64,000 bases of DNA from Apteryx mantelli (lineage: Eukaryota). How positions within the stretch are numbered: position 1 is the first letter of the stretch; every line of letters starts with the position of its first letter. Positions 3,526 to 62,780 of the stretch are shown here, piece by piece. Below the pieces are notes generated by a model. The model had not been told where the DNA came from. It saw only the letters and a program-made list of their open reading frames with translations, and did no database searches. The stretch spans positions 20,838,000 to 20,901,999 of the forward strand of contig NC_089978.1 in the NCBI RefSeq assembly GCF_036417845.1. Reading direction: 5' to 3'. A program made the translations under genes and the position numbers.

Positions 3526-3927
3526 CTGTTCAAGCTTTTGTAAGAGTGGATCATTGTAGTCTGATTTATTCTGACCATCCACTTCACCATGGACAAACTC
3601 TGTTTTAGAGGCTTCTAAATTATATGCTGCTGCTGGAAAAGATGTTTCAGTGGTGTGTTGCTGAAGTCTACAAGAGCTGCTGGATTCCAGTATTTGTTCT
3701 TCACACAAGGAGTCCTCACTTATAGAGCAGCTGCTTGAAAGATAGAGCACTTCAACAGGGAAAGCTGTGATGTTTTCATGTCCAGATAACGGACTTTCTT
3801 TGTTGATTTTCAACCCAGGAAAATTAGGATCTAGTAAGACTCCAGCACGGGAAGTGTCAGACATCCAATGTGCAATGAAGTTCGGTTCACTACTTAGATC
3901 TTCAACAGTTGGCATCTTATATTCCAA
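3526..3927 (-). CDS. CENPJ: CENPJ first coding exon (ATG at 3925-3927 on minus strand; 5'UTR continues to about 3953-3964)
   Basis: The translation 'MPTVEDLSSEPNFIAHWMSDTSRAGVLLDPNFPGL...DPLLQKLEQ' matches the CPAP N-terminus '[28 protein letters not shown]...DPLFKKLEQ'. The minus-strand donor 'gaacag|gtaaaa' at 3526 joins in phase 0 to the next exon. Confidence 0.7.
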
Positions 3928-4186: not shown

Positions 4187-5840
4187 AGACCACTAGTAAC
4201 AAACACTTTCTATACAGGAAGTCAACAAAATCTAACTTTTAAACTTTAATATTAACTGCATTCAAATAAATAACATCTCAAACGTTATAAAGCTATACAC
4301 AATATTCTATTCAATAGCACAGGGACAGGTTCAGAGCTTTTAAAAAGCATTCACAGCAAAAGGAGAGAGAAATGTTTTGAGGAGCTGAAAAAGATACACT
4401 AATATGAAGGTCCCGTGAGGGAAGTAATTTTTAAAGTTTGTCTACATACAATCATTTTACTGTGTATATTTCAGTGAGCACTTATCATTTTCATGCTTTC
4501 CTTGGTTTCTCATGGGAACTCTACACTGTGCTGCCTGTTAACCTCTTCCTCCTCCTCCCATCATCTTTTTTTTTTTCTTCCCCCAAACACAGAAAGAGTT
4601 TGAAGACTATGAAAGTGTCAGTGATGATCAAATTCCTACAAGCTTCATGAAGCAGTAATGAATTCAGGTAGCTAAGAAGCCCGGAGCGATGCCCCACTAA
4701 GGCCAGAGCCAGAACTGCTGCTGCTCACGTGGCAACAGCAGTCTGGCCACTCAGCGCTGCTACGTCAAACAAGTCCAAGAGCAGATAACTCTCTGCCTGT
4801 GTGTATGATGTGTCATAAGGAACACAGACAGAAAAAGTGGTCAGGGAACAAAGGACATTCAACCATAGGAAACCAGTCGTCAACAGTCCTGCTACTCAGG
4901 AAACAACATTTTAAAGTTTCCCCATTCCCAAGAGATCAGTCCATGCCAGCTCTTGTTTAATTCTCCACATACACAGAAGCTGTAAAAGGGCTTAAGCCTT
5001 TAACCAAAGTTTCACAGAGGCAACAACATGAGAAGCAGCAGACCGGCCTATAACTAGGGGAGACAGCAAGATTCCCTTAAATGAACGGTTTTCAACTTCA
5101 TCCTGTTTTCAGACACCACTGAAACTTCCCCAGCAAGGTGCAGATTCCTGCATAAGCAAATTTAAACCTGCTGGGTTTACACTTTTTTTCGTGTCACCTT
5201 TTGGAGACCCCTTCAAGGCAGCCTGTCAGTCCACAAGCAGATGCCTGAGCTAGACAACACAGTGAAAACTAGTCTTAGATCACTGCCCACCAGGTTTTGA
5301 GACCCCCCAAAAATACCCTCCTAAAATTTATATGAACTGTCTAATAAAAGTGCGATCTATTTAAAGCTTCTCCTGAAGTTTAAAGGCAGCGGCTCCTCTG
5401 TGCAGACCTTCTGAGGGAGGGGAGGTGGGGAAGGGAAGAAAGGACCCCCCAAAAGCCGGAAGAGCCCTCCTCGGTGGCGAGGAGGCGAGCGCAGCCTTTC
5501 TCCTTGCTCCGGAGCGGAGCCGGGGCGCCAAGGCCAGCCGGCATCTCCCTCCCCCGGGGACACCCCAGCGCCGCCCCAGCCTCCAGCACCGCGACGTCCT
5601 CACAGAAGGCAGCCCGAAGGGCCGAGGGCGGCCGCCCCGGCGGGGTCCCCCGCGCCCGCCGCTCCCCCGCCCCAGGGCAGCTCCGACCCGCGGCCCCTCG
5701 CGGGCGCCGAGGCAGCAGCCCCGATCCTCGCACCCCCGCTCGCCGCCGCCGCGCCGGCCGCCCGCCCTCCCCGTCTCTTACAAACCTGCCGCCATCGCAC
5801 AGCCTCCCAGCGCCACAGGCTGAACAACGCCCCGCGCGAG

Positions 5841-5865
5841 GCATGCTGGGAGTTGTAGTCCCAGG
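5841..5865 (-). promoter_or_regulatory. ZNF143/SBS-type 'ACTACAACTCCCAGCATGC' motif, minus orientation
   Basis: The reverse complement of 5841-5865 reads 'cctgggACTACAACTCCCAGCATGC'. This matches the extended ZNF143 (Staf) motif ACTACAAyTCCCAGCAaTGC. Confidence 0.6.
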
Positions 5866-5910
5866 CCGCTACCCTGCCCGCCCAGCTGCGAGGAGGCCCT
5901 GCGGCGCTCG

Positions 5911-5930
5911 AACTACAGCTCCCACGAGCC
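5911..5930 (+). promoter_or_regulatory. Second ZNF143/SBS-like motif 'AACTACAGCTCCCACGAGCC', plus orientation
   Basis: It carries the same ACTACA..TCCCA core in the opposite orientation, about 50 bp from the first. This is typical of bidirectional CpG-island promoters. Confidence 0.5.
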
Positions 5931-8900
5931 TCAGCGGCCAAAAGGCCGTTGATAGGCTTCAACGGTAACGACCGCCCTCGCCCCTGCCGCGCCCGCGCTC
6001 CCGTTCCTGCTCGGGGCTGTTGGAGGCGGCGGGGATCGGGCTGGGACGGCGTCTTTCCAGCACCTCGAGCTGCCCCTCGCTCCCGGGGCGGCCTTGCAGG
6101 TAGAAGCGGCTCGCTTTTTCCCCCAGCTCCCTCCCGTGTCGCTGCTCGCGGCCCTGGTGTCACCGAAATCACTGCGGGATCGCGGGTTCGCAGGCGTCTC
6201 CCCGAAGCTGCTGCGGGCGTCGTGTTTCACGCCGGGCCCCGGCGCCCCAAGGCGGCCTGGAAAACCTGGGAGGTTAACGGCCGGTTCCGCGCAGTATCCA
6301 TTAACAGCTGCCGTGAAAAGTACGAGGAAGTTCCCGTTTAGTGAGCGGTCCGCAAGCCTCCCGGGGTGGGGCTTCCCGGGGGGGGTGGGGCTCGGCTCGG
6401 GGGATGTTTGCTTTTGCAGCCGGTTCTTACGCCCTTTTAATCTTTAAGTAGCTGCAGTAGGCGAGGAGTGGAAGGGCAAACGGGCCAAGAGCACGCCTTG
6501 TCTTTCTGGCATTTTGCATTTTAGGTGTGCTCTGTCTTGTTGAGCTTCCCCCCCCCCCCTCCAAAATTAGCGGTTTCCTTTAAACTCCAGTAGAAGGCAC
6601 AGCATCACACACTAGAAACTCACGGTGCGTTGCAGGTTGCGACAATCTGGTTTTGCTCTTTACTCTCGTAGGCAAGTACAAAACTGTGCTCTAGGTTGTA
6701 TGTACCCGTGGCAGCCCTTCCAACTGCCGAGTACTAGTTTTAATTTCAGCTCTCTCTTCTTTCTGTAATTCCACCTGGTTCTTTCTCCTAAACTTTAATT
6801 TTGCCAGTTATGAATATATTTTCTACATGATTGTCCTCAAGCTTGATTCTGCATTAGCAGTGTGAAGCTACTGTGATAGAAAAGGTGAGGATTTCTACCT
6901 ATGCCTTTTTAAGGCACAGCATCACTATTAATTCCTTTGACATCTTTATTAGGAAAATATGGTAGAGGTTTGTTTTCAATATTTCTGCATGCTGAAGGCC
7001 TTACTGGACTCCAGATTATTCATGGACTACTTTGGATGATAAAAATTTCTCTTTGGCTCCCTCTGCATGCTAAAAATGTAATCTGTTGTTTGTGATAGTC
7101 CCAAGCTCACAGTTTGATCAGGAAGTGCAAGCTCACAATTCCTTTGAGGAAAATCGGACCTCAATGATCTCCACTGACACAAATTAAAATTGTAGGAATT
7201 AAGCCAGCAGTGATTGTCAACAGTTTTCCTTTACATAACTTCCTTATCTGGTGCTGCCCCAACACAGTTTCCAGTTTAAAGTGTCTATCAGCTGCTAATT
7301 AATTTTCAACATGCAGGTTCAATTGAACGGTCTATTATGATTTTGAAGTTTGAAAGTTTTACAGCTCAAAAAGACTAAAGCCAAAGGCTTTGCTAGAATT
7401 CCTTGAAAAGTTTGATTCTCCAGAAGAATAGAAAAGAGGCTAACATTCAGTGATAGCATTCAGCAACAGTGAAAGAGAATAAAATCCCCTTCACTCAAGG
7501 GAGAGAAAAGCTCCTGGGAGCAGACTCTGAACAGGTTTCAACTCAATTTCCTCTGCTCTGTAAGGTATTCCAAAGTTCACTTACACTGTACAGTGGTAGT
7601 TTCCTCATTCTTCCAAGTTTGGAGAGGGTTTACTGTCCATAGCTGTGTGGTAGACTGTACTTGGCTTGGTTTGATTTATTTGACTGGGTCACAATTAGTG
7701 TTGCTGCCCCTTTAGGCTTTTTACAGTGTTTGAGGAATGAGTGTGTCCTAGCCCTTCCTATCTCACAACACCCGGTCTCTCCAGTTGTATCTCGCACTGT
7801 TGGGAAGCAGGAAAGCCCTTCAGGGAGGGGAGCTGCCTCAGCAGGTGAGTGTAGATGATTTGTGTTGCTTAAAATCTAAAGAGAGGAGTGGGATCAAGGG
7901 TCGTTTAATGCCTGTAGTGCTGGCAGTACAGAAGGGTAGGGGGGTTACTTTGCGAACAAACTCAGAGGAAATGAATCTGTCCTTCTCTCCAGTTTACACA
8001 TTCCTTTCTGCTTGCTGGCTGATGTATGGTTTATTTACAGATCAGTTCTCTCAACAATTTTTTCTCAGTTCGCAGTGAGCAGCATAATTTTCATAAGCAA
8101 AATGTGATATAAAATAACATTGTGGAGCTTTTATGCCACATGTGGCTACCGGTCTCAGGTGTTTCTGATGTTTCAAGGTGATATGGATGTACTGGCAGGA
8201 CTGATGCTTGTAATAGCTTGTATTTATTTCATTGCCTTCTAATAATCTTATTGCTTAGGCTATGCAAATAGAATTCGTTATTTCCTGAGGAGACAACTTC
8301 TGATGAAACTTTGGCCGGAATCTGCTTTAGAGAGTGTATTGAGAAAACTAGTGCATGCAGAGGTCTAGGAGTAAAAAGGGAGGCAGTGCCCTGGTCCACT
8401 CTGTTATTATTAAGGGAAACCTTTGGCGATGGCACATTTGCCCTTATATATGCTCCAAATTTATGCATCTTATTTGTGATGAGATTCAAAATAAAGTTCA
8501 TAAAAGCAGCTTACACCATGCCATAGAGCTTCTTAAAGTTATAGTTTCCCACAGAGCCAAATTACAAGAAGGCTGGCTTGTAAGATTTTTATTACCTCAG
8601 ATACCACGGTATTTTGTGAAAACCTCTCAGTTAAAATATGGAAGAAGAGTTGTTTTTCCTGTGTGAGCAGAGCGTACTTTGATGCCAAAAAGATTGCTAA
8701 TTCCAGACAACAAAAAACAAGAGTCACAAAATACACGTTTATAGTGCCTTCATGTGCCCTTTTGTTAGGCAGTGCCTGCCTGATCTAAATATATGTATTA
8801 GAATTACAGTGTCGCCAGTTCGCTCAGATGTATAGCGTAGTAGATGGTTTGGGCCTTTCCTACAGGTTGCCTTTCTGAGATCAAATTGTACAGCTATGTA

Positions 8901-10906
8901 TAAAATCATGTCTGATGGTGCTGATTTTCCAGGCTTTCCTGAAACCCAAAATTCAAATGAATTATGTTGCTCTCTCCCTTAGACAAACTCCTTCCTATTC
9001 TTCAGCTCGTCACTTAGTTATTCCACAGTAGCTGGCAAGAGTATTGCTTTACTTTCTGCATTGAAAAATGATTTTACTTACATTCATTGAAAATCAAATA
9101 TGCCATAGAGTAAGAAAATATGCTCAGTCCTCAATTGTAATCCCACCTCTAAATTACCGCAGGTTCATTTGTTTATCTGAAACTGTATCGTTTAAGGCTT
9201 AATCAGAATTTGCAGTGCATGTGGGATCTCTCATCAAGTTGGAGAAAGCTCATCTTTTTTCTTCTGAATGGCCTGCCCAAAAGAGAGAGCACTTAATGTC
9301 GGGCATTTTTGGCCAACACAAGAAGTACTTTCCTTTCACATCGTCTTTGCTTTTCGAGGAGCAATTTCTTATTTGTTTTGCCTTATCCTGTGGGTCCAGG
9401 ATGAATTTGGAGAAGGCAAATATTCTGGATTGTCAGTTTTGTCCAGTCATCTCACAGTTAGAAATATTTTGCCTTAAGTCATGGTGAAAAATTTCTATCA
9501 GCAAGTAACTCTTCCAGAAATATGAAAAGTTAGAGTAAATACAAAGTCTTTACAAGTAACATTGATGCTAACCCTCTGTCTGAGATACAGACACAATGGT
9601 TAGCCAAAGAATTACCACTAAAAAGAATTTTCTGACTGAAATATTTTGTTTTACAGGCATACGTTCTCTTCACGCTCATTACTGTAGGGTGCATCTGCAT
9701 TAGCAGTTTGGCTTGGAGCAGAAATAGTTTTAAGCCAAATCTTTTGGTTGTCACCAGTTGCCTTATGTTGATTAAGGTCTCAAAGTGGTTTTGAGATGTA
9801 CAATCTGAATGCCTTTCAGAGAAAACTGAACTGAGCACTGTGCTTCAAATATGTCTAACAGGGACATAAGTGTGGGCCTAGGCGAAGGCCCTCTAGCTTG
9901 CACTTAGCACACATGCCACTCGAAGGCTCTCCTGTGACAGGCTGGGGAGCTCAAGGGATATAAAGAGCTCAGTGGTCATAAAGTGTTCTCGTTTACACTA
10001 CAGTTCTTTTTATCATTCTCATCAGTTTTTAAAATAATAATAACTTTGCACACACAAGCAGCCAGGAAAATAGGTATATACTGAGGATACATTTTAATGA
10101 CTTAAGCCAGACACTGTCTTTACATTTTGTTGTCATAAATTCTACTCCTGATTAAATAAAACTTTCCCAGCCTCCCATATCTTAGTGTAGTTTGTCACAA
10201 ATAACACGCAGCCAATTTTCATTGAGGTTGTTCTACAGGCATTGTAGGCGGACACTGCTAAGAAAAGAAGCTGTCCACCTACATCCATCCCTCCCCTGAC
10301 TACTCGCTTCCACTCCCATGTTCCTATGTAAGTCTTTGCCCTAGGCCACAGGGTGAAGTAAATCAGAAAACAGATCTGAATTAAAACTAACCTCTTGCTT
10401 TGTTGTTTTTTGCTCTGTTGGGTTTAATCTGGATCATTTTTGGAAAGTCCTTTTTGAATGTTGTTTTTCTGTGTTTACAGATTATATACATCTATGAGTG
10501 GAAACATGAGAAACAGTTTACGTTCTTGAAAAAGAGAGTTGTTTTATAGTAGTATTGTCTGAAAGGGGAACAGAAAGATTGTTCTAGTCTAAAATAAAAT
10601 AATTCCACATTACTAACAATGGGTATTAGCAGCAAGAAATCAAGATATGAGTTTGACAATTAGTTCATGCCATGCCTTTACTGAAAACGTAGGTCACACT
10701 AAATTTTCCACATGATTTAAGAAAATGAATAAAACTGATTAAGAACTATTCTCGGTGGATTTGATTACCATGCTAATAAAATGGATTTTGTTTTGATATT
10801 TTCTAGAGTTGAAAAGAGTATATTTGGTGGGAGATTACTTAGATGGATAATAGGAATGAAAGTTTTTTGAGCCAAAAAAACTATTTCCTTTTTTAACAGG
10901 AGGACG

Positions 10907-11032
10907 ATGACAATCTTTTCAAACTGTGTGTTTTTTTTAAAACTGAAGCACTTGCCTATTCAGGAGAAGAATAGGCTGAAAACATGCATTAAAGAAAACA
11001 GTGGAGTAATTCATTTTGTGCTTGATCACAAG
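10907..11032 (+). CDS. PARP4: PARP4 coding exon 1 (start codon; BRCT domain N-terminus)
   Basis: The ATG at 10907 lies 8 nt after the acceptor 'ttttaacag|gaggacg'. The translation 'MTIFSNCVFFLKLKHLPIQEKNRLKTCIKENSGVIHFVLDHK' matches the human PARP4 N-terminus 'MVMGIFANCIFCLKVKYLPQQQKKKLQTDIKENGGKF'. The donor is 'aag|gtatgt'. Confidence 0.8.
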
Positions 11033-13738: not shown

Positions 13739-13934
13739 TGTACACATGTTGTTGTGGATACTGTCAATGTCCTCAGCTCCCATCATCTAAAAATTATTCG
13801 GAAGTATCAGCTCCCTGTTGTATGTGTAGATTTCATATGGAAATCAGTTGAAAAGGGGAAACTTCTACAAATTGATGCCTATGAGGATAACAAATTACAA
13901 GACAACACTTTTAACCAAAAGCTAGATAGTCATG
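13739..13934 (+). CDS. PARP4: PARP4 coding exon 2 (BRCT)
   Basis: The translation '...KYQLPVVCVDFIWKSVEKGKLLQIDAYED..' matches human 'IANPDFIWKSIREKRLLDVKNYDP'. The acceptor is 'tcttttag' and the donor is 'catg|gtaagt'. Confidence 0.8.
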
Positions 13935-21550: not shown

Positions 21551-23689
21551 GTAACTTTTCCAGATTGCTAGTAATTCCTGATCTGCACTGTGCTGTATCA
21601 GTTTTAAATGTGCTCACTAGATAAGTTGACTGGGTATTTTGTGCAGCCAGTCACAGACAGTATTAGTTTAAAAAATTAATTTATTGAGATCTCTTGCGTA
21701 GAGTAACGCTCTTGGTGGGGAATTGAACCTGTTGAACAGGAAGACCAGTCAAGGTATGGATGCTGACAGGCGTCTCCTTTGCAATTTCTGTGATGGCATC
21801 TTCAGCTGGATCAACTGAGATTCACAAAACTTTTTCTGGTGAATTCTTATAATCCAGCTGGCCTTAGTAACCACTCCAGCATACACATAATCAGTTTCTA
21901 TTGATCATCTTAAATTAATACAGAACATATCTTAACTCTTTTATTAGTGCACAGAAGACTGTTCTGTGTGATCTCTACTACATATGCAGGAACAGTTTCA
22001 AGAAGCTGTTTAAAATTATCTACCTATGTACAGTTTGGTCAGTTCCTACATCTACAGCACAAAATGGGGGGGAGAGGGTGTGTAGTCTGCCAGACTGCCT
22101 GGATTCTCTGTGCAAGAAGCTAATCAGCACATCTAAACATACAGATAGTGTTTTGTCAGTTGGTGTAAGGCCAGCTGTCCTGCCTAGGAAAATCTCCCAC
22201 CACCACTCCCCCTTAGGTCTCCTGTGTTAATGAGTTCATTTTTAAGCTGGCTAGGAGTTCAGGCAGACAGGAGTTCAGTTGCCCTGTTGCAAATCAGTCC
22301 TCCGTCTCATCTTCGCAGAGTGGCTGGGAAATTCTCAGGCTGCCCAGGGAGCAGGTGCTGACGGGTGCAGAGCGTGCGCGCAGGCAGAGCCCTGACACCC
22401 AGCAGCTGTCGGGGAGCAGCAGGGGCAGGCGAGCCAGGAGGGAAGGTGAGGAAGGCCAGGACAGTTACCTCACCAGCAAGGGCACAGGCCCGCAGTACCA
22501 AACAAGAAGAGCAGAGCAGGTGACGGTGACTGCCAGTGGCAGTAACCAGGGGCAGACAGCAGTCCAGATCACCTCATCATTATGGCCTTGTCTGGCAGGC
22601 CCAAGGTCAAGCCAGGAAGTCAAGTCCACAGGATCAGTCAGAACTGGGGAAGTACCAGGCCAGGTGCAGACATATCTGCAACATAGCTCAGCCAGAGACC
22701 AAGGACAAGAGCTGGAGCTTAAAGGCAGCTCCTGAGTAAAGGTAGGTCATGCCCCTGCTGGGGCTTCTCACAGCTTTTTCAAGGCCTTACAGCTGTACTG
22801 TCAAAGCTGGCCCCGAGCCCAGGCAACTAGACCCTCGGGTGAAGTGAGATGCACTCAGGGCCCTGTCAGCTATATCACACTTGTAACTGTAGAACAAACT
22901 TGAATTTCTTCCTTGTATCACAATTATAATGTAAATTGCATAGATTGTGCTAGAGATCCCTCTTTGTTTTTGCAAAGGATACCCAAAGGTCAGTCTTTGA
23001 GTTACAAAATACAAAGGGGGAAAGGTAAAGAGAGGGAGGCTTCCTACTGGGGTAAAAAAGTAAATGTTAATAGTGTCTTTAATCTGGAAGTATTCCTGAT
23101 ATCAGAAATTATTATGTCTCGTACACCTTTCCCATGACTTAGTGAAATGTAGTATTAAAATTTTATTAACTGTCCTCTTTTTTCCTGGTCTGTGAAAATT
23201 ACATGAATGCGTTGTTCTATTGCCCTAACTAGATAGTGGCACCAGTGACAATATATGACGGATTCTAATAAGTAAGGGTTGCCTTGCAAGCGAAATGAAA
23301 ACAATAGCCGACCATGAATTCTGGTTTGTGGAGCTTTTATGAGCAGGCTCCATCAGGAACTTGATTTGGAGTTGTACAAAAGCAGTCTAACTATTTCTCG
23401 TATTCCTTTTTCTTCTGATTTGTTTTTATGGGATGCAATAGCCGTTTTGGTCTTGTTCCTTACTATATCTGACAAGTGAAAATGTTCTTTTGCATATTCC
23501 ACTTCAGTGATATTACAGTGTAACTTTATATAATTCAGTCTCAGTTTTGTGTTCAGCCTGAGTGTTTCCTTAATTAAAAATGTACCAAGTATTCGTTTGC
23601 AACAGAATTCACTGAAAAAAGTTAATGTTTATTATTCATTCATATGTGTTAATCATGCAACAATTGTAATTTCTGTCATTATTTTCTAG

Positions 23690-38414: not shown

Positions 38415-39639
38415 GTAAGTAAATTAGTTTGGCTGCATTCTATTGAACACTTTTTTGCAAGGAATACTCATCATTGTAAAACACTTGCACAAATTTTCCT
38501 CCTTTTTTACTTTTTTTCTAGGCCAACATCTTGAATTTCTTCTATAATTTAGTCTATTTAAAATCTGTTTGCCCTAGCAACAAGCACAGGCATATCTGAA
38601 TATTAATTCCAGTTTGATTTTGAGTGACTGCTTAAGTGGTTATTTTGAAGCTTAGTAGATATCAGTGTTAGGACATTTTTCAGTGTTTTCCCCTAAGCTT
38701 ACCTTTTTGAGTTTCATGCCTCTCCGTTGCTTGCTGACAGCAAAAGAGAAGAATCAATAGACTTCCTTCTGGAAATCCATAATTTGTAAATGAAGAGAAC
38801 ATTTAGAGGCTAAAGCACTTTTAGTGAAAAGAAAAATGCTTTTGAGTCCAAAAGATTAGATGTGAACTGTTTAGGACAGCAGTTTTTGGTTAGTACTGTA
38901 TCTTATTGCCAAATACAGGCTCCTCATCTGCAGCTAAAGCTTCCTGATGCTAGCATAACACTTAAAATACTAACATAATAGATATCCTGAAGATGGTATG
39001 GTAAGATGGCAGATGGTGTTAAAGGCAAAGTAACACAAAGGGGAAAACAGCACTAATTATACATATAAAGTATAGGGCTTCACTCAGAAAAGAGATATTG
39101 GAGCCACTGTGGATAGTCCTTTTTTAAACAGTGGCCTAATATTCAGCATCAGTCAAAAAAGTAACAGGTAGCTGCATAAATCTGCGTTGCTCTGGTATCT
39201 TGAATACTGTAAGCTCTTCTGGTTGCTCCATCTCAGAGAGTAGACTTAGAAAGGTAGAGAGACAGAAAACAGAGATGACTGGAGATATGGAAAACCTGCT
39301 ATGCAAGGAAAGGACTCTTCATAGGTTTTTAAGCCTTTGTTGCATCCTTACTCAGTTGTCTCTTCTCCAGGATAAACAGAGAGGAAAAGGAGAATAGGGA
39401 TGGTTAATTACTGTTTCTCACATCATAAGGATCATAGGACGTGCAGTGAGATCAGGCAGCAGATTAAAAAACAAAAATGAAACAGTTTTCTTCATGCTAT
39501 CAGTAAATAGTGGACCTTCTTGCCACATGATGATGTTGAGGCTAGAACTGTAATTGAGTTCAGAAAGTAGGTTAGGGCATTAGAAAACAGTGCTTAAGCA
39601 GCTCTTGGACACAATAGTCTGGATGAAAACTCCAGTTCA

Positions 39640-40075
39640 AGAAGTCACAGAATCACAGAATCGCTGAGGTTGGAAGGGACCTCTGGAGATCATCTAGTCC
39701 AACCCCCCTGCTCAAGCAGGGTCACCTAGAGCACGTTGCACAGGATTGCATCCAGGCGGGTTTTGAATATCTCCAGAGAAGGAGACTCCACCACCTCTCT
39801 GGGCAACCTGTTCCAGTGCTCTGTCACCCTCACGGTGAAAAAGTGTTTCCTCATGTTCAGATGGAAGCATCTGTGTTTCAGTTTGTGCCGTTGCGCCTTG
39901 TCCTGTCGCTGGGCACCACTGAAAAGAGTCTGGTCCCATCCTCTCGACACCCTCCCTTCAGATACTTGTACACGTTGATAAGATCTCCTCTCAGCCTTCT
40001 CTTCTCCAGGCTAAACAGGCCCAGCTCTCTCAGCCTTTCCTCATAACAGAGATGCTCCAGTCCCCTAATCATCTT
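39640..40075 (-). mobile_element. CR1 (chicken repeat 1) LINE 3' fragment, minus orientation
   Basis: The reverse complement carries the diagnostic CR1 3' end '...GGTCCCTTCCAACCTCAGCGATTCTGTGATTCTGTGA'. The minus-strand ORF fragments encode the CR1 ORF2 C-terminus ('...[26 protein letters not shown]'). Confidence 0.9.
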
Positions 40076-40228
40076 TGTAGCCCTAAAGTCCCTAAACCAA
40101 TGATTAATGAAAGCTCTGAGAATATTTCACGGAAAGAATTTACCATATTTCTTACACATTTTTGCCTAAGCATCCTTTTGCCTAAGCCAGGGAAGATACA
40201 GGACTAGATGAACCTTAAGCTGTATCTC

Positions 40229-59499: not shown

Positions 59500-60580
59500 C
59501 CTTCCGGCACCCCTAGTCGGGGTAACTGCCCCCCTCGCTCGGGGAAGGGCCGCCGCCGCCCGAGAAAAGCGAAACCCCACGCGGCTGCCAGGGCGGGATG
59601 TCTGTCCCCAGAGCAGGGGCGCCGCAGCGAGCGCGGAGCCGCGCCGCCCGTCACCGCTCCCTCCCAGCCGGCAAGGCCGCACCAGGCGCTCCCGGGGCCG
59701 CCCGCGCAGCCGCCCGCGCCCCGGCGGCTGCAGACGCGGTCGCCCCAGGCGGGCGGAGCGACGGAGCGCGGGCCTGGCGGCGGCGGGAGCGGCCGCGCCG
59801 CGCCCGCCTCCTCTCAGGGCGCCGCCGCGGTCCCCTGCGGCCTCCCGCCGCGAGCGCCGCTCATTGGCTGCGGGCGACTGCCACGCTGAGGGCACGGAGG
59901 CTGCTAGGCTTGGGCCCCGCCTCCGTGCGTCACGGGCTGGCGGGGCGCCGATTGGCCGCGGCGGCCGCCCTGCCGCCTCCTCGCCCGGCGGTGGATGTCG
60001 CAGCCTCTTTTGCCCGTTGTCGTTTGAAACTCGGCCCAAGATGGCGGCGGCGGACGGGAGCGGCGCTGAGGCGGCGGCGGTCAGGCTGGAGGGGGCGGCG
60101 GAAGAGGAGGAGACGGCAGCTGCGGCCGAGGATGAGGAGGACGAGGAGGAAGACGGTGGCGGCGGTGGGTCTGGCAAGGCGGCGGGCGCGGCGGCTGCCG
60201 GTGGGGAGGCCGGCGGCGGCGGGGAGAGCGACGAGGAGGAGGACGTGTTCGAGGTGGAGAAAATCCTGGACGTGAAGACCGAGGGGGTGAGTGCGCGCCG
60301 CCGCCGCCTGTCAGCGGCCGCCCTGCGGCGGGGCCCGCGCGGGCGGCGGCGCCGGGTGCCTCGGCGGGCTGGCGCGCAGCCCGGCCGCCCTCCGCCCCGG
60401 CGGGGCCAGCGGCTCCCTAGCGGCCGGACTCCCCCTGCCCCGGGAAAGCGCACGGGAGCGCGGCGAGCAGGGGCGGCCGCCAGCGCTTGCAGCAGGGCGG
60501 GCCTGGGTGGGCTTGGTCGCGTGGCGCTCTCCCTCAGTCTTTCTGCGCGCAGGCTTTGCAGGCTGCGCAGGTAAGAGACC
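59500..60580. promoter_or_regulatory. MPHOSPH8: CpG island and promoter of MPHOSPH8, extending through its first exon
   Basis: The GC/CpG content is extreme. Two inverted CCAAT (ATTGG, NF-Y) boxes lie at about 59862 and about 59950, a 'cgtcac' CRE-like half site lies at about 59927, and the Kozak ATG follows at 60041. Confidence 0.7.
60041..60286 (+). CDS. MPHOSPH8: MPHOSPH8 (MPP8) coding exon 1: acidic N-terminus and the start of the chromodomain
   Basis: The context 'cccaagATGG' precedes an 82-codon ORF, 'MAAADGSG...ESDEEEDVFEVEKILDVKTEG', ending at the donor 'ggg|gtgagt'. The segment 'EDVFEVEKILDMKTEG' is the start of the MPP8 chromodomain in human. Confidence 0.8.
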
Positions 60581-62479
60581 GATGTTTCATGCAGCTTTTT
60601 CTACCCATCTTTTCTTTACTTGCACGAGAAACACGCAAAAACTGTACTTCTATTATAATTGTAGCTTAAAACAGTAGTAGTTTTGTAAAGAAGCTCTTCT
60701 ACTTTTTTTTTTTTTTTTAGTTGACGTAAGATATATCTGGAATGTCTTTCCTGATTTTTCTTTTTCCCTGCAATGTTAAACTATTTTTTTGCTCTTCTGC
60801 CTGACCTATGATTGTGTTTCGATGTAAACTTAGAGTGCTGAAATTTGCAGAATTGAATATGATGGAGACCTTGAAGTAGTTTCAGAGTATGTTTGCTGGG
60901 AAACACTACTGGCATATAAAATGTGTGAAAGCCTTTTAAATAGAGGGGCTCTTTTCAATTAAAATAACTAACTATAGTGCTCTTCTTCTCTTTGTTTAGA
61001 GAGATTCTTCTTTCTTTGAAAGTAGCCTGAATTGGTTGAAACTTTTCTAAAATTTCATAAATTTCAAATGCAAAAAATTACATAACTTTTTTTAATGATT
61101 TTATATTTGCAAGTTGTTTAACTAATTTATAAGTTTGGCTTTAGGCTTTAGTCAAACACATGGTGGTATAGAAGTGCCTGCTTAGTGTATCAAGATTTTG
61201 AAACTCTTAGATCAGAGAACCTTTGGACCAAGAATTTTTTTATATGTCCATGATGCTGCCACAGTTAGATTGTGTCTTGATTTCTTAAGAATGTTATGCT
61301 TCAGAGATAATATTTATAGTTTTGCCTATGAGAGTCATTGGTCCAAATAGTACGTCAAGCTTAAATATAAGAGTACCCTTCCGTTACAACGATGGAATGT
61401 AAAATTTATGTATTGGAGAGTCATACCGCTCCACACGCTTCTAAAGAACATCAGCATACATGGATTACAGTCTTTCCTTTTTTTTAAAAAGTTGTATGTG
61501 CTGACTGAAAGGCATCTCCCACCCCCTTTTTCTGCCTCCTTCTTCCTCTAAACAGTTTATTCTGTATCAGGTTCTGAACTGTATTCTGTTGGGTATACAG
61601 AACTGAAAAAAAGCTGTACGGGATATTCAGTGGCATATATTTAATGTAGTTGGCGTTCGACAAGAGGTTCCCAGTTTGCAGGTTCCCAAGCACAATACGT
61701 GGCCCGAGCAGGTTGGCTGTGCTGGACAGAAGCTGGCTCAGTGTGAGGCCAGTCAAGCACTGCCTGGAGAAGCTCTTGTCATTCCCTGCCCTGACACTGC
61801 TGGAGCTAGTGCAGAGAGGCAGCCCATCAAGAATGGCATTAGGCTGGGGAGTTGGACCTACTGATAAGTGAAACATTAAGATGTTCTACTTAAGACAGTT
61901 GGCAACAAAAGTTTGGGAATGTTTCTGTTTTGTATACCTAGAAAGCTTCTTCTACTGTTCAAAAATTCTTCTAAAATGACAGGCTTCAAGACAAATTGTG
62001 GTGTAACCTATAAGCAGGTAACCTTAATTTTGCTCTTTAATTACATGGTGATATCCCTTTCCATAAGAGTTGGTTTTGGCCCATGACTAGCTCTTGTAGA
62101 AACTATAGCAGTATAAAAATGTTTTAAAATATTCTCTTATTTGTAAGTAACAGAACAAATAATAATATGAGTAAAATAATTCTAGGAGATGAGTGAAAGT
62201 CTACAACTTTAGTATGATGAACAGCAATCTCGTCTTCATTTAATTCACTTTGATAAGCTGCAATTTTGTATCATTCAAGTATGTACTGAACACAGAGTCA
62301 TTTCAACAGCTGAATAGTCTCACTTTGGTTTATTAAACATAATGTAAGCTTAAAGACTTATATTTACATTCCAGTGAACATGTTAAGTTCCCTATGAACA
62401 AGTTAATTTAACATGAGTCAGCAGTTTTTGCAGCAAAGAAGGTTTTTGCAGCCACATCCAAGAGTGTAGCCAGCAGATC

Positions 62480-62780
62480 AAGGGAAATGTTTTTTCTCTA
62501 CTCAGCAGTGGTGAGACAGCATCTGGAGTGCTGTGTCCAGTTTTGGTCTCCCCAGGACAAGGCGTGGACCTACTGGAGTGGGTCCAGCAAAGGGCCATGG
62601 AGGTGATAAGGAGGCTAGAGCACAGGACATGCAAGGAGAGGTTGAGAGAGCTAGGTTTGTCCGCCTTAAGAGGAGGAGGCTCAGGGCTGATCGTAGCACT
62701 GTCCACCCTACTCAGTGGGAGGGTGTAGAGCGGACAGAGTCAGACCCTTCTCAGAGGTGCACACTGAAAGGGTAAGAGGC
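62480..62780 (+). mobile_element. CR1 fragment, plus orientation
   Basis: The plus-strand ORF reads '[36 protein letters not shown]'. This is the conserved CR1 ORF2 C-terminal region, compare '[23 protein letters not shown]' in the other copy. Confidence 0.8.

Follow-up and report, generated by a model that had tools for sequence, protein, structure and literature searches.

Opposed ZNF143-type motifs with conserved spacing in a candidate divergent promoter between CENPJ and PARP4 in birds and squamates

The Staf/ZNF143 binding site (SBS) is an 18-bp element with the consensus YWCCCRNMATSCMYYRCR (PMC5006282, PMC3627581), with high conservation of CCCR (positions 3-6) and of C (position 12) (Anno et al. 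2011, PMC3082894). It is present in 46.7% of 839 human bidirectional promoters, which serve two diverging genes whose starts are separated by less than 1 kb, and an SBS-containing fragment is sufficient for bidirectional activity (PMC3082894). Promoters can hold more than one copy, with 601 SBS in 392 promoters (Anno et al. 2011, PMC3082894). An ACTACAN extension defines the SBS2 form and the THAP11 site ACTACANNTCCCA, also described as motif M4, ACTAYRNNNCCCR (PMC3627581, PMC5006282); in mammals the SBS2 composite is bound by ZNF143 or, alternatively, by THAP11-HCFC1. The M4/ACTACA motif reportedly peaks around -89 from annotated start sites (PMC5006282). ZNF143 stimulates initiation when bound upstream of a start site and represses it when bound downstream, and the Puffin model represents it as acting almost symmetrically on both strands.

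Here we describe a 64-kb window, the whole stretch of DNA analysed, in which positions 5786-5964 are probably the core of a CpG-island promoter common to the divergent genes CENPJ (minus strand) and PARP4 (plus strand). Our literature search found no link describing these genes as a bidirectional pair or placing ZNF143 at either promoter. The first coding exon of CENPJ lies at 3526-3915 on the minus strand (ATG at 3915, 130 codons, donor CAG/GTAAAA, the slash marking the splice site). Its translation matches proteins named centromere protein J in Protopterus and Crotalus, as well as exon ORFs on contigs that carry a downstream PF25779 Tubulin-bind_CPAP exon. In the protein collection, this exon-2 ORF retrieved genomic exon ORFs only, with a best identity of 76-77%, no exact or >90% match and no spliced contigs; the PARP4 N-terminus had three matches there, none from spliced contigs. 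The first coding exon of PARP4 is found at 10900-11032 on the plus strand (acceptor tttttaacag/G, ATG at 10907, 42 codons). Joined to 13739-13934, it encodes a BRCT domain (PF00533, E 4e-10) with 65% identity to a Varanus ‘PARP4-like’ protein, and PARP, VIT and VWA exons follow downstream of the BRCT exons. The coding exons of CENPJ on the left and of PARP4 on the right are thus arranged head-to-head, and the translations and domains bear out the preliminary description, which had named these two genes as the divergent flanks of a promoter. The same adjacent, head-to-head order is presumably found in mouse, with an inversion separating the two genes in human. In the window, splice acceptors precede the ATG exons of both genes, and the Varanus PARP4 ATG exon is preceded by ctttttgcag. 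Because the PARP4 ATG exons in the window and in Varanus begin at a strong 3′ splice site, a non-coding PARP4 exon must exist upstream.

Between the first coding exons of the two genes there is a single CpG island of 1.1 kb (5400-6500), with a GC content of 0.53-0.85 and a CpG observed/expected ratio mostly of 0.65-1.26 in 100-bp bins. GC skew on the plus strand is -0.13 to -0.37 in every bin of 5501-6000, mixed around zero in 6001-6300 and positive only in 6301-6500. In the middle of the island lie the only two matches to ACTACANNTCCCA in the window, at 5847-5859 on the minus strand (ACTACAACTCCCA) and at 5912-5924 on the plus strand (ACTACAGCTCCCA), and the M4 form ACTAYRNNNCCCR finds the same two sites and no others. 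Whole-window shuffles predict about 0.05 matches in 64 kb, and none of 100 shuffles contained two or more; within the island, 20,000 dinucleotide shuffles gave a mean of 0.00000, with an analytic expectation of 0.00013. The 12-nt cores are separated by a 52-bp spacer (5860-5911) and are 64 bp apart from centre to centre. Their ACTACA ends face inward, and the 3′ end of each points to its own gene. The paired, opposed ACTACA(N)TCCCA motifs about 50 bp apart that had been noticed previously are therefore confirmed, and they stand far above background.

Both motifs continue into an SBS, so that ACTACAN lies directly 5′ of the SBS and forms with it the ACTACANNTCCCA core that defines an SBS2/THAP11 (M4) site. 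The left, SBS2-type site (5835-5859, minus strand, ACTACAACTCCCAGCATGCCTCGCG) is composed of ACTACAA and an 18-bp ZNF143 SBS oriented toward CENPJ. This SBS (5835-5852, CTCCCAGCATGCCTCGCG) agrees with the consensus at 18 of 18 positions and is the sole match in 64 kb without a mismatch. The right, SBS2-like site (5912-5936, plus strand, ACTACAGCTCCCACGAGCCTCAGCG) is oriented toward PARP4 and matches ACTACANNTCCCA exactly, with an SBS (CTCCCACGAGCCTCAGCG) that agrees at 14 of 18 positions. The CCCR at positions 3-6 and the C at position 12 are present in left and right sites alike, and the mismatches of the right SBS fall at positions 8, 10, 13 and 15, consistently across all species compared. 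The right site may therefore be a THAP11-type or a weak ZNF143 site and not a canonical SBS2.

The promoter could be compared in five sequences: the window, two avian-type contigs (L004 and L009), Varanus komodoensis and Crotalus adamanteus. Of 12 loci with homologues of CENPJ exon 2, L004 and L009 alone extend into the promoter; the rest break off inside the GC-rich island. All five sequences keep both motifs in the same orientations, with spacers of 52, 52, 52, 51 and 53 bp in the window, L004, L009, Varanus and Crotalus, respectively. The Varanus locus has PARP4 across the pair from CENPJ, the same divergent arrangement as in the window. The left SBS scores 14-18 of 18 across the five species; the right SBS scores 13-15 of 18 across all species compared, with an invariant core in the five. 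An invariant GGCGG(C/T)AG/GTTTGTA donor follows 48-50 nt from the left site in all five. The sequence of the spacer is not conserved between birds and squamates, and the L009 spacer is the window and L004 spacer in reverse complement (40-41 of 52 matches reversed vs 29-30 forward). Judged from these sequences, the motif pair is conserved in position, orientation and spacing among birds and squamates, and the only unusual details are the fixed spacing and the micro-inversion of the spacer in one lineage. A metagenome scan with the donor block gave no match, one with GCGCTCGAACTACAGCTCCC gave only four unrelated bacterial-type contigs, which are chance matches, and a spurious ORF that spans the promoter (5384-5965) recovered only its counterpart in L004.

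The shared-promoter model that we favour has as its core two back-to-back SBS2-type elements, each combining an ACTACA(N) extension with an 18-bp ZNF143/Staf site and placed upstream of the gene that it faces, on that gene's own strand. ZNF143-type factors on both elements would maintain the island in an open state and promote outward initiation by Pol II on either side. The CENPJ start would fall in the 49-nt interval that separates the left element from a donor at 5786, so that exon 1 would be non-coding, very short and equipped with a YY1-like (+ATGGCGGC) element. The PARP4 start would lie beyond the right element, on its right-hand side, with a non-coding exon 1 spliced to the ATG exon at 10900. 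The single 1.1-kb island, the invariant CENPJ donor at 5786 and the acceptors ahead of both ATG exons suggest that the two starts would be within 1 kb of each other. We infer factor binding, start sites and donor use, and the reading as a compact divergent promoter of the ZNF143/THAP11 type is partly supported.

On the CENPJ side, the segment between the left site and the donor (5786-5834, minus strand, 49 nt) would contain the start site or sites as well as a short exon 1 that is non-coding. Within this segment lies the block TCAGCCTGTGGCGCTG (5808-5823, minus strand), which is invariant or nearly so in the five species. The putative exon-1 donor GGCGGCAG/GTTTGTAA (5778-5793, minus strand) has its last exon base at 5786; the string GCGATGGCGGCAG/GTTTGT is thus present where it had been reported, and we infer its use as a donor. 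All five sequences carry TACAAACCT.CCGCC unchanged, and the donor sequence also appears at the start of another contig, L005. With a simple donor matrix, whose values are approximate, GTTTGT scores about 5.0 bits, compared with 7.5-10.5 for internal donors. The YY1-like sequence GCGATGGCGGC (5788-5798, minus strand) stands in CENPJ sense orientation, 1-11 nt before the donor, and ATGGCGGC is found in the window only in this segment and at the start of MPHOSPH8, where the canonical AAGATGGCGGC coincides with the start codon. The YY1-like sequence is comparable to the downstream core-promoter element of YY1 (AAGATGGCGGC, immediately 3′ of the start site), but the CENPJ copy is without the AAG prefix and the squamates are without the CCAT core (ACGGCGGC and GTGGCGGT). 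Because the squamates have lost this core, the element may be bird-specific, or no YY1 site at all.

The PARP4 side is less sharply defined. The string caacg/gtaacg is present on the plus strand as previously described, with 5964 as the last exon base, and would serve as the PARP4 donor. The interval from the right site to this candidate (5937-5964, plus strand) holds the conserved block AAAAGGCCGTT, and the GT at 5965 aligns with a GT in L004 (caaca/gtgaag) and L009 (ccaca/gtggcg), so that it is kept in three of three bird sequences. However, among seven plus-strand GT sites with 4.2-7.0 bits on the approximate matrix, this donor is no better than the other six: its 5.0 bits equal the score at 6099/6100 and are below those at 6524 and 6624. 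Were initiation to occur downstream of the elements, exon 1 would be at most 49 nt in CENPJ and, with the donor at 5964, at most 28 nt in PARP4, both unusually short. The peak of the M4/ACTACA motif at about -89 would mean that the starts lie beyond these donors, or that each element serves the opposite gene. Further points count against the shared core: GTTTGT and GTAACG are both weak, several GT sites in the island scoring equally well or better on the simple matrix, the right SBS agrees with the consensus at no more than 13-15 of 18 positions in any species, and two opposed copies are not obviously needed, since Puffin models ZNF143 as almost symmetric on both strands.

In a different reading, the ZNF143-type sites are functional and form no compact shared core. 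Their target would then be chiefly a single gene, and CENPJ, with its exon-1 donor held at 49 nt from the left site, is the likeliest candidate. Alternatively, one of the two sites would be a roadblock downstream of a start, in keeping with repression by ZNF143 from such a position. PARP4 would start further right in the island, using donors such as those at 6099, 6524 or 6624, or would have a promoter of its own before 10.9 kb. The very short exon implied by 5964, the abundance of comparable GT sites, the 560 bp by which the island continues beyond the pair on the right and the poor alignment of birds with squamates to the right of the right motif all fit such a start. Against it, the right site points to PARP4 and is conserved as well as the left, the GT at 5965 is kept in all the bird sequences, and no second CpG island was found between 6.5 and 10.9 kb. 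On balance, we regard this reading as unlikely, although it is the strongest competitor to the shared promoter.

Could the inverted repeat matter instead as a hairpin or cruciform, for example as a TSS-miRNA-like precursor of small RNA akin to avian mir-1805? Positions 5836-5936 fold to -57.9 kcal/mol (z = -5.5), and small RNAs that depend on Dicer are known to arise at Pol II start sites (PMC6009592, PMC8675727). The whole 84-position Rfam model RF03779 (mir-1805) aligns to 5838-5932, in a full-length but weak match of 26.1 bits (E 0.0014-0.0047) whose likeness lies in the hairpin arms GGAGUUGUAGU and ACUACAGCUCC, an inverted pair of the same motif core. We reject membership of this family, as the score is far below the gathering threshold of 64 bits, the loop is 15 nt longer, and the match is absent from the orthologous L004, L009 and L017. 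The ortholog hairpins are unremarkable (z of -1.4 to -2.8); pairing over the five species is 84.5%, compared with 83.1% for shuffled partners (87/500), significant covariation is absent, and the variable NN positions disrupt pairing in three of the five species. The shared-promoter model would also place the hairpin between the start sites, and hence leave it untranscribed. A function as a hairpin is thus very improbable, and the fold appears to be a by-product of the repeat. The weakest reading, a tRNA-like gene (ARAGORN tRNA-Cys, anticodon ACA, 5802-5892, minus strand) activated by the ZNF143/Staf site as in tRNA-Sec/snRNA-type genes, has the ARAGORN prediction and the naming of Staf/ZNF143 as activator of the tRNA-Sec gene (PMC5006282) in its favour but is effectively refuted, as the 91-nt prediction overlaps the motif itself and its anticodon is unusual, Rfam yields neither a tRNA nor a tRNA-Sec match even at E up to 10, the fold does not surpass that of shuffles (z = -0.02) and ARAGORN predicts nothing in the orthologous L004 and L009 regions.

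Returning to the shared promoter, one small, deeply conserved unit probably drives both CENPJ/CPAP, a gene of centriole duplication, and the gene for the vault poly(ADP-ribose) polymerase. Birds and squamates split about 280 million years ago. In the time since, the spacer has acquired a different sequence, and one lineage has it flipped, but the spacing has shifted by no more than 1 bp. This amounts to a natural experiment, and it makes a spacing requirement for paired ZNF143/THAP11 sites directly testable. With 63-65 bp between their centres, or about six helical turns, the two motifs would lie on the same face of the DNA. A more speculative idea, to which we give only a small chance, is that the segment of about 150 bp formed by the right SBS2, 52 bp, the left SBS2, 49 nt and the CENPJ donor is a rigid ‘double-SBS2’ module, its function set by exact distances and not by the sequence or orientation of the spacer; orientation would be irrelevant because one lineage carries the spacer inverted. 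In such a module, two ZNF143 (or THAP11-HCFC1) complexes would cooperate and jointly fix the two start sites, and a spacing rule for paired sites (back-to-back ACTACANNTCCC) might extend to other bidirectional promoters and to the mir-1805-annotated locus. A fixed back-to-back spacing of 51-53 bp was not found described in the ZNF143/SBS papers that we consulted.

As bidirectional promoters of the ZNF143 type are a well-documented class, the overall picture is unchanged, and the CENPJ-PARP4 promoter appears to be a conserved, newly found case of this known class. It resembles the human Staf/ZNF143 bidirectional promoters (Anno et al. 2011, PMC3082894), such as that of TMEM186-PMM2, in its head-to-head genes, its CpG island and the presence, in the intergenic core, of multiple SBS with the RRACTAYRN/ACTACA extension; the BUB1B promoter (PMC3082894) likewise combines two SBS with an ACTACAA motif. 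With the SBS2/THAP11/M4 element (Ngondo-Mbongo et al. 2013, PMC3627581; PMC5006282) it shares, at both sites, ACTACANNTCCCA followed by the rest of the 18-bp SBS, the left site fitting the consensus at every position and the right site deviating at 4 of 18. It differs from the human promoters in being a sauropsid locus and in the strictly back-to-back arrangement of its sites, with a spacer of 51-53 bp in birds and squamates.

Within the 64 kb, ACTACANNTCCCA matches at only two places, 5847–5859 on the minus strand and 5912–5924 on the plus strand, both inside one CpG island, where 0.05 matches would be expected from dinucleotide shuffles of the whole window and approximately 0.0001 from shuffles of the island alone. 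A looser form of the motif, M4 (ACTAYRNNNCCCR), again picks out just these two sites. The left site, which faces CENPJ, is the 25-mer ACTACAACTCCCAGCATGCCTCGCG (5835–5859, minus strand), and the right site, which faces PARP4, is ACTACAGCTCCCACGAGCCTCAGCG (5912–5936, plus strand); their ACTACA ends lie on the inside, flanking a 52-bp spacer (5860–5911), so each site is directed outward. The 18-bp Staf/ZNF143 binding site (SBS) has the consensus YWCCCRNMATSCMYYRCR (PMC5006282), with strong conservation of CCCR at positions 3–6 and C at position 12 (PMC3082894). With ACTACAN immediately upstream it becomes the 25-bp SBS2, which includes the THAP11 site ACTACANNTCCCA, and binding of ZNF143 and THAP11 to that site is mutually exclusive (PMC3627581). 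The left site agrees with the 18-bp consensus at 18/18 positions, the sole perfect match in the window, and the right site at 14/18, with both CCCR and C12 present; the ACTACA extension is found in both. Judged by sequence, the left site is a classic example of SBS2 and the right site is SBS2-like or THAP11-type, which bears out the paired, opposed ZNF143-type motifs of the preliminary description. Separately, 5771–5880 (minus strand) has very weak similarity to Rfam ZNFX1-AS1_1 conserved region 1 (20.4 bits, E 2.7), and the core of that alignment, GACUACAnnUCCCAG...GCGCG, is one more promoter-proximal SBS2.

The window is vertebrate-like and approximately 35% GC, with two CpG-rich peaks at 5–7 kb and 59–61 kb. 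At fine scale, the first peak is an island at approximately 5400–6500, with GC up to 0.85 and CpG observed/expected mostly 0.65–1.26; it is the sole CpG island separating the first coding exons of CENPJ and PARP4, and it contains the motif pair. The CENPJ ATG exon (3526–3915, minus strand) starts with ATG and encodes MPTVEDLSSEPNFIAHWMSDTSRAGV...; together with the next exon it matches Protopterus and Crotalus proteins named centromere protein J, and the CENPJ exons also match exon ORFs of contigs that have a Tubulin-bind_CPAP (PF25779) exon further downstream. For CENPJ exon 2, a search for the exact ORF gave no match, and the best protein matches are 76–77% identical. Its DNA shares 86–88% identity with a first cluster of contigs and 79–80% with a second, the clusters being 83–85% identical to each other, a pattern that fits a bird outside both groups. 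The PARP4 ATG exon (10900–11032, plus strand, ATG at 10907) has a strong acceptor, tttttaacag before G. Joined to 13739–13934, it encodes a BRCT domain with 65% identity to Varanus komodoensis ‘PARP4-like’, and plus-strand exons further downstream carry the PARP catalytic, VIT and VWA domains of the PARP4 architecture. The second CpG island (approximately 60 kb) opens an ORF that at its end matches PDB entries for the MPHOSPH8 chromodomain (9h77 and 3qo2; E 2e-4 to 1e-3). From exon identities and strands, the gene order is therefore CENPJ (minus), PARP4 (plus), MPHOSPH8 (plus), with CENPJ and PARP4 head to head as the divergent pair that had been proposed. A lone GC-rich stretch inside a PARP4 intron (22200–22740, GC 0.52 per kb) has a 172-codon open frame of no obvious identity. 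The ORFs at 62395–62772 and 39627–40204, for example ...VRQHLECCVQFWSPQ..., are presumably avian/reptilian CR1-type retroelement fragments, which, if true, favours a sauropsid origin of the window.

Most short-read contigs end within the GC-rich island, and four sequences that reach the promoter were compared with the window: the avian-type contigs L004 (SRR9860178) and L009 (SRR10498953) and the annotated squamate genomes of Varanus komodoensis and Crotalus adamanteus. Two opposed motifs occur at the equivalent place in 4/4. Invariant columns of the five-way alignment fall into four clusters, namely the CENPJ donor block (GGCGG(C/T)AG, then GTTTGTA across the junction), CCTGTGGCGC as read on the CENPJ sense strand, the left core GGGAG..GTAGT and the right core ACTACA..TCCC. 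The spacer measures 52 bp in the window, L004 and L009, 51 bp in Varanus and 53 bp in Crotalus, and the distance from the 3′ end of the left SBS2 to the donor is 49 nt in the window, Varanus and Crotalus, 50 nt in L004 and 48 nt in L009. Because this geometry is almost fixed although bird and squamate spacer sequences are essentially unalignable, we infer that constraint acts on the distances themselves. In Varanus, the PARP4 body lies beyond the motif pair on the strand opposite to CENPJ, and a 3′ splice site precedes the PARP4 ATG exon there too; a head-to-head order with a non-coding PARP4 exon 1 is therefore not specific to the window. The Varanus BRCT exons occupy a 4.6-kb segment flanked by two 100-N gaps (L017:9681-14300, GCA_004798865.1), which lies on the strand opposite to the remaining PARP4 and has its own ‘PARP4-like’ gene annotation; the flip is probably a scaffolding error, from a misoriented contig.

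The L009 spacer (1449–1500) is the reverse complement of the spacers of the window (5860–5911) and L004 (619–670), matching them at 40–41/52 positions in reverse complement versus 29–30/52 forward, and L009 stays collinear outside the motif cores. This single contig points to a likely micro-inversion, of either polarity, mediated by inverted repeats, with breakpoints within the 12-nt inverted cores. The motif pair and its spacing outlasted the inversion, which fits a function set by spacing and not by spacer content.

The same region could be read as a structured RNA. The 101 nt at 5836–5936 fold as a long hairpin (−57.9 kcal/mol, z = −5.5), as they would because the sites are opposed copies of one motif, and the avian Rfam family mir-1805 gives a weak full-length match at 5838–5932 (plus strand; 26.1 bits, gathering score 64), its consensus arms, GGAGUUGUAGU and ACUACAGCUCC, having the same core sequences as the motif pair. 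The orthologs have no mir-1805 match and unremarkable folds (z −1.4 to −2.8), and in the five-species comparison the arms pair no better than shuffled partners do and show no significant covariation. These results argue against a functional hairpin, and we regard the fold as a by-product of the motif pair; the shared cores suggest that the annotated avian mir-1805 locus is itself built from two opposed copies of this promoter motif. A 91-nt ARAGORN tRNA-Cys call (anticodon ACA; 5802–5892, minus strand) that overlaps the left motif is a false positive, since it lacks Rfam support, a fold signal and any call in the orthologs.

On the CENPJ side, the putative exon-1 donor (last exon base 5786) is present, and the five species are invariant from 8 nt before the junction to 7 nt after, save the sixth of the eight exonic bases, where Crotalus has T and the rest have C. 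Its GTTTGT is weak on an approximate matrix (5.0 bits, versus 7.5–10.5 for internal donors); despite this score, the invariance is good indirect support for use of the putative donor. CENPJ exon 1 would be at most 49 nt if transcription begins downstream of the left site. A YY1-like GCGATGGCGGC lies at 5788–5798 (minus strand) in CENPJ sense orientation, 1–11 nt before the donor, and is shared by the three bird sequences. Its ATG, which these birds keep and the squamates lack, has a favourable start-codon context and would open a uORF of 6–7 codons extending into exon 2. Because YY1 motifs are strand-specific and typically sit just downstream of start sites, this position would fit a CENPJ start approximately 10–30 nt upstream of the element, at roughly 5808–5830. 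A canonical YY1 motif, AAGATGGCGGC, also provides the start codon of the MPHOSPH8-matching ORF (60038–60048, plus strand), and ATGGCGGC occurs in the whole window only there and at CENPJ exon 1. The stretch from the left site to the donor includes a block, TCAGCCTGTGGCGCTG (5808–5823, CENPJ sense strand), that is near-invariant across birds and squamates; it may mark where transcription starts or be an E2F-like element (TGGCGC).

On the PARP4 side, the candidate donor at 5964 retains its GT in 3/3 bird sequences and, on the same approximate matrix, scores no higher than those at 6099, 6365, 6384, 6524 or 6624; with this donor, a start past the right site would leave an exon 1 of at most 28 nt. 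Given these scores and so short an implied exon, the earlier placement of both start sites inside approximately 150 bp is only plausible. Immediately right of the right site is a conserved block, AAAAGGCCGTT (5940–5965, plus strand). In the window it belongs to a small palindrome, CCGTTGA...TCAACGG, that overlaps the 5964 donor and fits the MYB site YAACGG whichever strand is read; its CGTT is invariant in 4/5 species, Crotalus having the G replaced (ATT).

In mammals, 46.7% of bidirectional promoters have ZNF143 sites, and an SBS-bearing fragment is enough for bidirectional activity (PMC3082894). Rapid-depletion work indicates that ZNF143 binds upstream of the initiation site and stimulates initiation, whereas in the Puffin model the ZNF143 motif is nearly symmetric. 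If ZNF143 action depends on orientation, a divergent promoter with balanced output is predicted to have two sites back to back, each lying upstream of its gene and oriented with it. The match to this prediction led us to adopt a model, which we consider fairly probable, in which two ZNF143-type complexes drive a divergent CENPJ/PARP4 promoter. Complexes on the left and right sites, possibly alternating with THAP11–HCFC1, would keep the island open and push initiation outward, with a YY1-like element on the CENPJ side in birds. Of the shared promoter first described, support extends to the two genes, the kind of motif and the divergent layout, and this layout is conserved. Only two features, the fixed spacing and the inverted spacer, might merit a specialist’s experiment; the CENPJ/PARP4 core is a new, well-conserved case of an already known kind of promoter.
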